Below, one piece after another: positions 43,262 through 63,229 of a stretch of DNA of 64,000 nt (positions are counted from its first letter, which is position 1; each line of letters opens with the position of its first letter). The position numbers and the translations under genes are program-made. The stretch lies in the NCBI RefSeq assembly GCF_024298765.1, contig NZ_CP101210.1, one strand, 5' to 3'. The notes under the pieces were generated by a model, which had not been told where the DNA came from, ran no database searches, and was given only the letters and a program-made list of their open reading frames with translations. The stretch is from Escherichia coli (GTDB lineage: Bacteria; Pseudomonadota; Gammaproteobacteria; Enterobacterales; Enterobacteriaceae).

Positions 43262-44278
43262 ATGTCCACATTACGCCTGCTCATCTCTGACTCTTACGAC
43301 CCGTGGTTTAACCTGGCGGTGGAGGAGTGTATTTTTCGCCAGATGCCCGCCACGCAGCGCGTTCTGTTTCTCTGGCGCAATGCCGACACGGTAGTGATTG
43401 GTCGCGCGCAGAACCCGTGGAAAGAGTGTAATACCCGGCGGATGGAAGAAGATAACGTCCGCCTGGCGCGGCGCAGTAGCGGTGGCGGCGCGGTGTTCCA
43501 CGATCTCGGCAATACCTGCTTTACCTTTATGGCTGGCAAGCCGGAGTACGATAAAACCATCTCCACGTCGATTGTGCTCAATGCTCTGAACGCGCTCGGC
43601 GTCAGCGCCGAAGCGTCCGGACGTAACGATCTGGTGGTGAAAACCGCCGAAGGCGACCGCAAAGTCTCAGGCTCAGCCTATCGCGAAACCAAAGATCGCG
43701 GCTTCCATCACGGCACCTTGCTACTCAATGCCGACCTTAGCCGCCTGGCAAACTATCTCAATCCGGATAAAAAGAAACTGGCGGCGAAAGGCATTACCTC
43801 AGTGCGTTCCCGTGTGACCAATCTGACCGAATTGCTGCCGGGGATCACCCATGAGCAGATTTGCGAGGCCATAACCGAGGCCTTTTTCGCCCATTATGGC
43901 GAGCGCGTGGAAGCGGAAATCATCTCCCCGGACAAAACGCCAGACTTGCCAAACTTCGCCGAAACCTTTGCCCGCCAGAGTAGCTGGGAATGGAACTTCG
44001 GTCAGGCTCCGGCATTCTCGCATCTGCTGGATGAACGCTTTACCTGGGGCGGCGTGGAACTGCATTTCGACGTTGAAAAAGGCCATATCACCCGCGCCCA
44101 GGTGTTTACCGACAGCCTCAACCCCGCGCCGCTGGAAGCCCTCGCCGGGCGACTGCAAGGCTGTCTGTACCGCGCGGATATGCTGCAACAGGAGTGCGAA
44201 GCGCTGCTGGTTGACTTCCCGGAACAGGAAAAAGAGCTACGGGAGTTGTCAGCGTGGATGGCAGGGGCGGTAAGGTAA
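43262..44278 (+). CDS. lplA: lipoate-protein ligase A
   Basis: 338 aa [57 protein letters not shown]... Confidence 0.96.
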
Positions 44279-44309
44279 CTCGCTGATTAAAATATCCAGG
44301 GAAGGAAAT

Positions 44310-44573
44310 ATGATCGATCTGGAAAACCAGGAACGGGAGATTATCAATTTAATGTTCAGCCAGGGTATATCCTGGCTAACCGCCGTGCGTATCAGGCATA
44401 AATTATCGCTTGCTGAAGTAAGTAAAATGTTAGGTATCTCCATTAATTCTCTAAAACAGATCGAAAAGACGGAACGGCTTAGTTCAAACATCAAAAGCAA
44501 AATGGCAGGAATTTATGGTTGTCCACCAGAGTTGCTGATATGCCCTTCCTGGATGACGGCTGAACATAAATGA
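44310..44573 (+). CDS. small HTH (XRE-like) DNA-binding protein, uncharacterised
   Basis: 87 aa MIDLENQEREIINLMFSQGISWLTAVRIRHKLSLAEVSKMLGISINSLKQIEKTERLSS...; AGGAA RBS about 7 nt upstream of the ATG; HTH-like LSLAEVSKMLGISINSLKQIE. Confidence 0.6.
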   Translation: MIDLENQEREIINLMFSQGISWLTAVRIRHKLSLAEVSKMLGISINSLKQIEKTERLSSNIKSKMAGIYGCPPELLICPSWMTAEHK

Positions 44574-44603
44574 ATAGATTCGTGAATAGATACTTGAATG
44601 GAT
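44572..44603. repeat. tandem 9-mer TGAATAGAT repeated at 12-bp spacing (third copy TGAATGGAT)
   Basis: tgaatagattcgtgaatagatacttgaatggat read directly; an extra TGAATAGAT copy lies near 44660. Confidence 0.6.
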
Positions 44604-44675
44604 TTTATTTTCTATCCATATGAAAAATAATAGTAAATCTATAAATCAGTTGCTATTGATGAATAGATACTAAAA

Positions 44676-44701
44676 AGCCGGAGCAGTCTCCCGCTCCGGC
44701 T
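44676..44701. terminator. hairpin terminator downstream of deoD
   Basis: gccggagcagtctcccgctccggc perfect inverted repeat about 30 nt after the deoD stop. Confidence 0.55.
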
Positions 44702-44733
44702 TCACAAGGCAATCGCCTTTCAGCAAAACACAA

Positions 44734-45453
44734 TTACTCTTTATCGCCCAACAGAACGGATTCCAGTGCGATTTTGATCATGTCGTTGAAGGTGGTCTGA
44801 CGCTCAGCGGCAGTGGTCTGCTCGTGAGTGCGGATGTGGTCAGACACGGTGCAGATGGTCAGGGCTTTCGCGCCAAATTCTGCAGCGACGCCGTAGATGC
44901 CAGCGGCTTCCATTTCCACGCCGAGGATGCCGTATTTTTCCATCACGTCGAACATTTCGCCGTCCGGAGAGTAGAACAGGTCAGCGGAGAACAGGTTACC
45001 AACGCGAGCATCAACGCCCAGTGCTTTAGCCGCGTCTACCGCGTTACGCACCATGTCGAAGTCAGCGATAGCGGCAAAGTCATGGTCTTTAAAACGGATG
45101 CGGTTAACTTTGGAATCGGTGCAGGCACCCATACCGATAACGACGTCGCGCAGTTTTACGTGCGGCAGAACAGCGCCACAGGAACCAACGCGGATAATTT
45201 TCTTCACGCCGAAATCGGTGATCAGTTCTTTGGTGTAGATGGAGCAGGACGGGATACCCATACCGTGGCCCATTACGGAAATTTTGCGGCCTTTGTAAGT
45301 ACCGGTGAAGCCCAGCATACCGCGAACGTTGTTCACTTCACGGGCATCTTCAAGGAAAGTTTCAGCAATATACTTCGCACGCAGCGGGTCGCCTGGCATC
45401 AAAACTACGTCAGCGAAATCGCCCATTTCTGCATTAATGTGTGGGGTAGCCAT
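44734..45453 (-). CDS. deoD: purine nucleoside phosphorylase
   Basis: 239 aa [69 protein letters not shown]. Confidence 0.97.
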
Positions 45454-62610: not shown

Positions 62611-63229
62611 ATTTCCTCCACATCCACTGTCTAAAAATCATGATGGTTTATTCAAGGTATTCATTCCTTAAATATTCTCAGCAAATTAATAGATTAAGTG
62701 AATAAATTATCCTTAGCATTCACTTTCATATCAGCATACTCCTGCTGCACAACAACTCCACTGCATGTGTCAGAAGGTTAGCATCAAATGATAACCTGGT
62801 GAAATAGCCTGGAGACATTTAAAATATCTACATTAAGTTGTTAGAAATACTTAATGAAAAACAGAGATCTCATTCATTTAATTTATAATTAAATGATATC
62901 TCTTCCCGCAGAATGCGGGAATCACACAATCAATATTTATTCAATAAAATCTGATGGTTTTAACTTGTTAACATTAAAAAACGCGCCCAGCTATCTATTA
63001 TCCTGACTCGTAAAGGCCAAATAACAAATTCATTATAGTGATAATATTCATGCGATAGTTTGTTTACGGCGAGAGATAATTCGCTTTTTATCACCGAGCA
63101 TCTCCCGATAACCAGGATTAATCAGCGCAATTTTGATCTTAACCTACCGCAAAACAACCGTGCTTCATGATACAAATGGATTCTCATTAACTGAACAATA
63201 CGCAGCACGTCTATGACAAAGGGCGAGTT

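Follow-up and report, generated by a model that had tools for sequence, protein, structure and literature searches.

The phased direct repeats at positions 44571–44668 of the window, the whole stretch of 64,000 nucleotides of Escherichia coli DNA analyzed here, almost certainly represent the control region of hipH (also known as yjjJ). The units very likely form a repressor operator, and our full explanation, which we consider probable, is that of an operator autorepressed by HipH and orphaned in this strain, where a small gene on the opposite strand has taken the place of hipH.

Exact copies of the 9-mer TGAATAGAT were found at 44571–44579, 44583–44591 and 44660–44668, and a variant, TGAATGGAT, at 44595–44603. 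The units starting at 44571, 44583 and 44595 follow a 12-bp period, and the fourth copy lies 89 bp from the first unit and 65 bp from the third, rather than some 75 bp further on as given in the preliminary description; measured from 44668 to 44603, the distal-proximal spacing in the window is thus 65 bp. The same description was right about the 12-bp-spaced triplet, about the fourth exact copy and about the TGA of the first unit doubling as the stop codon of an 87-aa open reading frame (ORF), while its start of the array was off by one (44571). Read on the minus strand the units are ATCYATTCA and the array is ATCCATTCA-AGT-ATCTATTCA-CGA-ATCTATTCA-TTT-ATG, the last proximal unit ending 3 nt short of the relic hipH ATG (44565–44567). 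The features of the region are the following, in window coordinates:

43262–44278, plus strand: lplA, the conserved neighbor on the other side of hipH.
44310–44573, plus strand: 87-aa ORF with a helix-turn-helix (HTH) of the XRE/Cro type, in the place of hipH and on the opposite strand to it.
44565–44567, minus strand: relic hipH start codon (CAT on the plus strand), the point where homology to the K-12 hipH allele stops.
44571–44579, minus strand: unit 3 of the candidate proximal operator (ATCTATTCA), nearest the former hipH start; on the plus strand its TGA terminates the 87-aa ORF.
44583–44591, minus strand: unit 2 of the candidate proximal operator (ATCTATTCA), homologous to the K-12 unit under the repressor site mapped to +30..+45 by Reg-Seq.
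44595–44603, minus strand: unit 1 of the candidate proximal operator, the variant ATCCATTCA, which also occurs in hipH-linked arrays.
44604–44659, minus strand: spacer of 56 bp, here called W-type; in hipH-bearing Enterobacterales the spacer carries the -35 and -10 of hipH.
44660–44668, minus strand: candidate distal operator unit (ATCTATTCA), 65 bp (start to start) upstream of proximal unit 1.
44675–44702, minus strand: deoD terminator hairpin, a perfect 10-bp stem with a minus-strand T-run, which bounds the hipH control region on its upstream side.
44734–45453, minus strand: deoD (purine nucleoside phosphorylase), the conserved upstream neighbor of hipH in Enterobacterales.

Allowing for one mismatch, the single 9-mer was not enriched in the window (16 matches, 10.7 ± 3.3 expected), and the phased two-unit pattern TGAATRGATNNNTGAATRGAT had two overlapping occurrences, only at the array, compared to 0.00 expected from 100 shuffles. 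The array is single-copy, with a median of one place per genome, and was found in 5424 of 5426 complete E. coli genomes. The phased repeats were thereby confirmed as real and non-random, and the genome-wide search suggested in the preliminary description showed the phased array to be locus-specific. Elsewhere in the window, two one-mismatch copies of the 9-mer (TTAATAGAT and TGAATAAAT) lie 13 bp apart at 62686–62707, and a third is found on the opposite strand approximately 240 bp away (62935–62943). A scan for consensus promoters and terminators returned one promoter-like site only, on the plus strand at the start of the 87-aa ORF, and passed over the deoD hairpin, which its T-run rule excluded. 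The sole nearby inverted repeat, ATGGAT-N10-ATCCAT, belongs to the W-type spacer only and is not found in K-12.

K-12-type strains have no 87-aa ORF but a minus-strand hipH, with its ATG at the equivalent of window positions 44565–44567 and encoding a HipA-family kinase of 443 aa with an N-terminal HTH. Between the two alleles the hipH coding sequence is swapped, exactly from the ATG, for approximately 290 bp bearing the XRE-type HTH ORF on the opposite strand. The K-12 yjjJ flank, to which the preliminary description had pointed for comparison, shares the units, the terminator and the ATG with the window and has hipH in the place of the ORF. When alleles from K-12, E. albertii and others were aligned, the terminator, the distal unit, the three proximal units and the ATG were found in register, the units and the terminator being identical or nearly so, and the 56-bp spacer could not be aligned, as K-12, E. 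albertii and the window all differ. The HTH ORF allele was found in 4068 and hipH in 1348 of the 5426 complete E. coli genomes, and a sensitive blastn search detected no diverged hipH in the approximately 4078 E. coli genomes outside the 1348 carriers, indicating that the alleles are mutually exclusive and that window-type strains are without hipH. Likewise, tblastn (E ≤ 1e-3) detected no HipH similarity in a 3.6-kb locus (L002) that matches the window exactly over its central 601 bp. With no hipH downstream of the array, the control region is here an orphan.

Several individual alleles deviate from these two types. In E. coli A21 (L128, positions 501–621), the 87-aa HTH ORF is joined to a K-12-type spacer and three perfect units, and the distal unit is mutated to ATTTATTCA; this mosaic allele indicates that recombination shuffles segments of the locus, with breakpoints within this 130-bp region. 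E. coli WB61 (L123, positions 1501–1692) has lost all of hipH but its first ~190 nt, which directly adjoin lplA and are annotated as a partial 'transcriptional regulator' pseudogene; this loss of hipH is an independent one, and the distal unit is mutated to ATCTATTCG. An E. coli clade represented by M00057 (L129), PS1Phumofeces1 (L139) and KE47 (L142) lacks one 12-bp unit (window equivalent 44583–44603), which leaves two proximal units, and its 87-aa ORF is frameshifted. In Enterobacteriaceae bacterium RIT691 (L087, positions 600–1400), deoD is followed by a hipH-type promoter, two ATCTATTCA units and the ATG of a gene for a 217-aa DUF2238 membrane protein, a further and independent case of hipH being replaced precisely at its start codon, here in the same orientation.

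To place the array in a wider context, one genome from each of 100,044 species (298 Gb) was scanned for TGAATRGATNNNTGAATRGAT, yielding at least 120 loci, with approximately 35 chance matches expected in that amount of DNA. A tblastn search with K-12 YjjJ found a HipH homolog (33–95% identity) in 44 of the 120 matches listed, and three further listed matches encode HipH-like N-termini that are cut by the end of the locus or a stop codon. In loci whose upstream region was examined, the gene starts 0–110 nt after the array and the units always point toward the gene. The array accompanies hipH in many Enterobacterales, in Xanthomonadales/Lysobacterales (Dyella, Rhodanobacter, Luteibacter, Rudaea, Dokdonella), in Burkholderiales (Curvibacter, Acidovorax, Variovorax, Massilia, Malikia, Hydrogenophaga, Limnohabitans), and also in Rhodocyclales, Chitinimonas and Methylophilaceae. 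Among the matches listed, the array was found with hipH in more than 40 genera besides Escherichia/Shigella, and the recognizable proteobacterial arrays were located either at hipH or where hipH has evidently been lost. As the scan was seeded by the motif, part of the association between array and HipH reflects ascertainment, and a small motif-independent sample was therefore considered, consisting of 11 HipH homologs picked by protein similarity alone. All four homologs from Salmonella, Kosakonia, Erwinia and a Klebsiella sp. (49–65% identity) have the distal and three proximal units together with conserved deoD-hipH synteny. An exhaustive HMMER search gave 644 HipH cluster representatives at E ≤ 1e-30; six out of seven distant representatives (33–42% identity) have the layout or a recognizable yTATTCA version of it, as units with a 12-bp period or a distal/proximal pair, and the seventh (L135) has a TTATTATTCA element at both positions. 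Outside Enterobacterales, hipH is found in unrelated genomic contexts, which leaves HipH as the sole constant companion of the units.

Matches in Collinsella, Planctomycetota, Paenibacillus and an archaeal MAG were set aside as unrelated, being repeats (of low complexity, or tandem ones of the CATT/CATC type) or single elements present in multiple copies. In Collinsella spp. (L006, L008, L009, L022, L034 and others), ATCCATTCA-N3-ATCCATTCA precedes the ATG of a MatE-family transporter gene by ~45 nt and is conserved in many species; it resembles simple repeats of the CATT/CATC type, and a relation to hipH is improbable. Five contigs of one Verrucomicrobiaceae MAG (L012–L016) are identical over the ~140 bp examined around the site, in which ATCTATTCA-CAT-ATCTATTCA precedes an ORF by 19 nt. 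The ORF is 354 aa long (235 aa in L014), and its product in L012 has weak matches to the ATPase-like Pfam families AAA_5 and AAA_16; no HipH homolog was detected in these five loci, and the locus looks like a multi-copy element. In an Oxalobacteraceae MAG (L045), a two-unit ATCCATTCA array is followed by an ORF with a HipH-like N-terminal winged helix (MQAHAESIRKRLASGPATPRQLIDLIGFSQPTLSR...) that ends after ~74 residues; this is a pseudogene or else a free-standing DNA-binding domain with its operator retained.

The layout of the array was compared across 52 HipH-linked loci. The proximal chain comprises three units in 27 of these, two in 19, one in four and four in two, and the last unit is followed by the start codon within 0–10 nt in most loci, 3 nt being the commonest distance. 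In approximately 27 loci, from both Enterobacterales and Xanthomonadales and with unrelated spacers, the start of the distal unit lies 65 ± 1 bp upstream of that of the first proximal one, and the remaining distances group near 65+12 and 65+24. Counting units with at most one mismatch, 155 are in forward and one in reverse orientation. The nine positions of the unit are near-invariant, to which the one-mismatch cutoff contributes; it is preceded by T or A, and the 3-nt linkers vary freely. Promoters were placed by aligning the loci without gaps from the distal unit. A -35-like TTTAC/TTGACA in Enterobacterales is accompanied by a -10-like TATAAA/TAATAA/TTAAAT, which abuts proximal unit 1, and the units span roughly +1 to +35 of a leader in which no Shine-Dalgarno sequence is visible. 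The Xanthomonadales-like loci have TTGACT-17-TATCTA with the start codon 7 nt past the -10, so that the units overlap the core promoter and the mRNA is probably leaderless. The window displays the hipH layout, with the 65-bp spacing, three units and a relic ATG, and has no hipH gene.

The same DNA has been studied in K-12, where Reg-Seq found two repressor sites on the yjjJ promoter (TSS 4621716), of which that at -24..+18 was attributed to MarA and that at +30..+45, located at the edge of the mutagenised region, was left with its factor unnamed (Ireland et al. 2020, PMC7567609). The latter site corresponds to TCTATTCACGAATCTA, i.e. units 2–3, and is identical in the window. The distal unit, at about -48..-40 from the TSS, was also mutagenised in that study, with no site called there (PMC7567609). 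With regard to the protein, the HTH of HipH/YjjJ has been proposed to be one that 'may bind DNA' (PMC8262856) and was found to be needed for HipH to be toxic and to localise to the nucleoid, and c-di-GMP was found to act on the hipH promoter via a regulator not yet named (PMC11452175); ChIP-exo with myc-tagged YjjJ in K-12 gave no binding site anywhere (PMC8464067). The N-terminal ~60 residues of HipH contain an invariant SQxTxSR helix, a putative recognition helix, and an AF2 model of the domain (pLDDT 88.9) shows a three-helix winged helix with a β-hairpin. Among solved structures, the fold is nearest to those of the ArsR/SmtB-family proteins HlyU, SqrR and BigR (TM 0.72, rmsd 1.7 Å), with weak sequence matches (E 5e-4 to 1e-3), and the domain is unlike the XRE fold of HipB. 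Since HipH alone always accompanies the units across unrelated genomic contexts, we lean towards HipH as their binder, on the combined grounds of co-inheritance, the invariant SQxTxSR helix and the Reg-Seq site.

In hipH-bearing relatives, two or three ATCYATTCA units are situated between the -10 and the start codon, or over the core promoter in Xanthomonadales, and the distal unit 65 bp upstream provides a second site, such that the two sites flank the promoter. In the mechanism that we propose, the units would work as a repressor operator, for which Reg-Seq provides the basis in the case of units 2–3 in K-12. HipH winged helices may bind head-to-tail, one per unit, possibly bridging the distal and proximal sites, and HipH would in this way repress its own promoter, as a one-gene autorepressed module. 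In the window, hipH has been replaced from its ATG on by the ~290 bp carrying the phage-like XRE HTH gene in reverse, by which the operator was orphaned.

The array would be a variant among the autoregulatory operators of the toxin-antitoxin type. HipB, a separate dimer of the XRE type, acts on palindromic TATCC-N8-GGATA sites, and no HipB-type palindrome is present at the hipH array; unlike the hipBA sites, its units are 9-bp direct repeats with a 12-bp period and a single orientation (155:1), with a distal unit at 65 bp, and their candidate binder, a kinase, carries its ArsR-like winged helix as a fused domain. The ArsR/SmtB repressors HlyU, SqrR and BigR resemble the HipH N-domain most closely in fold and are stand-alone dimers reading inverted repeats, whereas the HipH domain is kinase-fused and associated with direct repeats. 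Regulators of the OmpR/PhoB type (pho box, tor boxes) are winged helices thought to bind head-to-tail on phased direct repeats by the promoter; their boxes have a period of 10–11 bp and usually activate, in contrast to the 12-bp period of the hipH array, with a candidate binder from another winged-helix subfamily without a receiver domain. TorR/PhoB boxes and IHF/DnaA sites were considered as identities of the repeats and rejected, given the 12-bp period, the poor match and the hipH-specific motif. With the hipBA operators of K-12 the array has in common that several sites are placed over the promoter of a HipA-family kinase toxin, with a logic of repression (PMC8262856). The K-12 yjjJ promoter as analyzed by Reg-Seq is the same DNA, with a repressor site over units 2–3; the repeats and their conservation were not noted in that work, and the window, unlike K-12, is without the regulated gene (PMC7567609).

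The 87-aa ORF has weak Pfam matches to HTH_3 and sigma-70 region 4. Close homologs of its product (57–99% identity) were only found in Escherichia/Shigella, many of them truncated or frameshifted, and more distant relatives (30–37% identity) are small XRE regulators of phages and plasmids. Among E. coli alleles pN/pS is 0.13–0.26, based on few sites, with signs of purifying selection. The ORF is probably a real, young gene derived from a mobile element that replaced hipH, and only adjacency links it to the units. The idea of a truncated or inverted piece of hipH was discarded, as neither BLASTP nor hhalign (probability 5%) revealed similarity. The most divergent match to the 87-aa protein (P0036; L143 and L144, Logan assemblies) displays P-to-L/F, S-to-F, T-to-M/V and R-to-W/C changes throughout, and the translation of its locus does not match the query; it was rejected as a real variant, having the appearance of an assembly built from C-to-T-converted (bisulfite-like) reads. 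On the other strand, the relic hipH ATG opens an ORF of 27 codons (MFSRHPGRAYQQLWWTTINSCHFAFDV, 44484–44567) that lies antisense to the HTH ORF at its 3' end.

The preliminary description took the neighboring HTH protein for a possible partner of the repeats, which would make the units an operator of the 87-aa protein, controlling e.g. convergent transcription from the old hipH promoter or deoD. The ORF physically adjoins the array, with its stop codon inside unit 3, and such a role would agree with its low pN/pS (few sites), with the 27 unit positions without a single change between two deep hipH-less lineages whose spacer is 23% changed, and with the one E. coli clade where a unit deletion and a frameshift of the ORF occur together. 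However, that haplotype is a single lineage and hence not independent evidence, and the array long predates the ORF, traveling with hipH in dozens of genera that do not have it, while close homologs of the protein were found in Escherichia/Shigella only. Proteins with an XRE/Cro-type HTH, a fold unrelated to the winged helix of HipH (hhalign probability 5%), usually bind inverted repeats near their own promoters, whereas this array is found at the 3' end of the ORF, with an orientation, strand, spacing and position that suit hipH. We therefore regard the 87-aa protein as an improbable ligand. A host factor other than HipH, c-di-GMP-responsive or MarA-like, which could still occupy the orphan site, is a minor possibility that deserves more weight: YjjJ showed no binding in ChIP-exo, the hipH promoter responds to c-di-GMP through a regulator not yet named, Reg-Seq ties the neighboring site to MarA, and a possible residual constraint on the units without hipH would also fit. 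Such a factor would need to have kept its specificity unchanged over Enterobacterales, Xanthomonadales, Burkholderiales, Rhodocyclales and others while acting only at hipH, as the phased array is single-copy in E. coli and the proteobacterial arrays among the matches listed are at hipH or at sites of evident hipH loss.

That the repeats act in RNA, as AUCUAUUCA elements of a Shine-Dalgarno-less hipH leader affecting translation or stability, with a dead leader remaining in the window, seems very unlikely. The proximal units of Enterobacterales do lie between the inferred -10 and the ATG with no Shine-Dalgarno sequence, and Reg-Seq reads mRNA, so a leader effect could mimic a repressor site, but the distal unit keeps a fixed distance of 65 bp and is located upstream of the promoter, the units of Xanthomonadales-like loci overlap TTGACT-17-TATCTA and would not be part of the leaderless mRNA implied there, and Rfam covariance models gave no match at E ≤ 1 in the region 44200–44800. 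Slighter still is the chance that the repeats are a recombination site, or a scar of one, that mediated the exchange of hipH and the HTH ORF. The boundary of the E. coli alleles is only 3 nt from the array, the DUF2238 gene of RIT691 replaces hipH at the same point, and deletions of 12-bp units are seen; on the other hand, both alleles carry the same intact array, which accompanies hipH wherever the gene occurs, the ORFs within 2 kb are lplA, the HTH ORF and deoD, with no integrase or transposase among them, the fixed distal spacing and the overlap with the promoter amount to an operator layout, and neither similar arrays at other cassette boundaries nor a recombinase acting on the units were seen. 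Of the two origins offered in the preliminary description, the regulator array has thus held up, as the now remnant cis element of hipH containing the K-12 repressor site, and the recombination site has not.

Within the preferred reading of an orphaned hipH operator, the units in this strain are fairly likely to be an inert, non-functional remnant. The strain labeled E. coli SCPM-O-B-8794 represents a deep lineage with the same hipH-less junction, its deoD having a pS of 0.205 to that of the window (E. albertii, 0.242). Compared to the window, its spacer differs at 13 of 56 positions and its retained units (the distal and two proximal ones) at none of 27, a difference with a P of about 0.002–0.004 in what is a single, post-hoc comparison. 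The unchanged units could mean that some constraint remains, or that recombination with alleles bearing hipH has refreshed them. The deletion of one 12-bp unit in SCPM-O-B-8794, and of one in the E. coli clade with the frameshifted ORF, speaks against constraint; among the complete E. coli genomes, no further deep hipH-less alleles were found for this comparison. Purifying selection on the orphan units in the ~75% of E. coli without hipH, with the units being used by the 87-aa HTH protein or a host protein, appears rather unlikely. If true, the retained units could silence the old hipH promoter, now antisense to the HTH ORF and lplA, and the locus would present a case of a toxin operator captured by a replacement gene. 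The old hipH promoter, if still firing, would give antisense RNA over the HTH ORF toward lplA.

A HipH-family operator layout appears not to be described in the searchable literature, in which the 9-mer was found in unrelated primers and shRNAs only and no paper tying HipH to an operator was encountered. HipH/YjjJ is a HipA-family toxin kinase without a partner antitoxin. The candidate operator is unusually well conserved, with its ATCYATTCA units, 12-bp period and distal unit at 65 bp, and the autorepression model, if true, accounts for the unnamed repressor site of Reg-Seq. For E. coli, hipH is a presence/absence polymorphism, with approximately 25% of genomes carrying the gene and the rest retaining the operator alone, and this strain-dependent presence of hipH bears on how studies of persistence and biofilm formation are read across strains.
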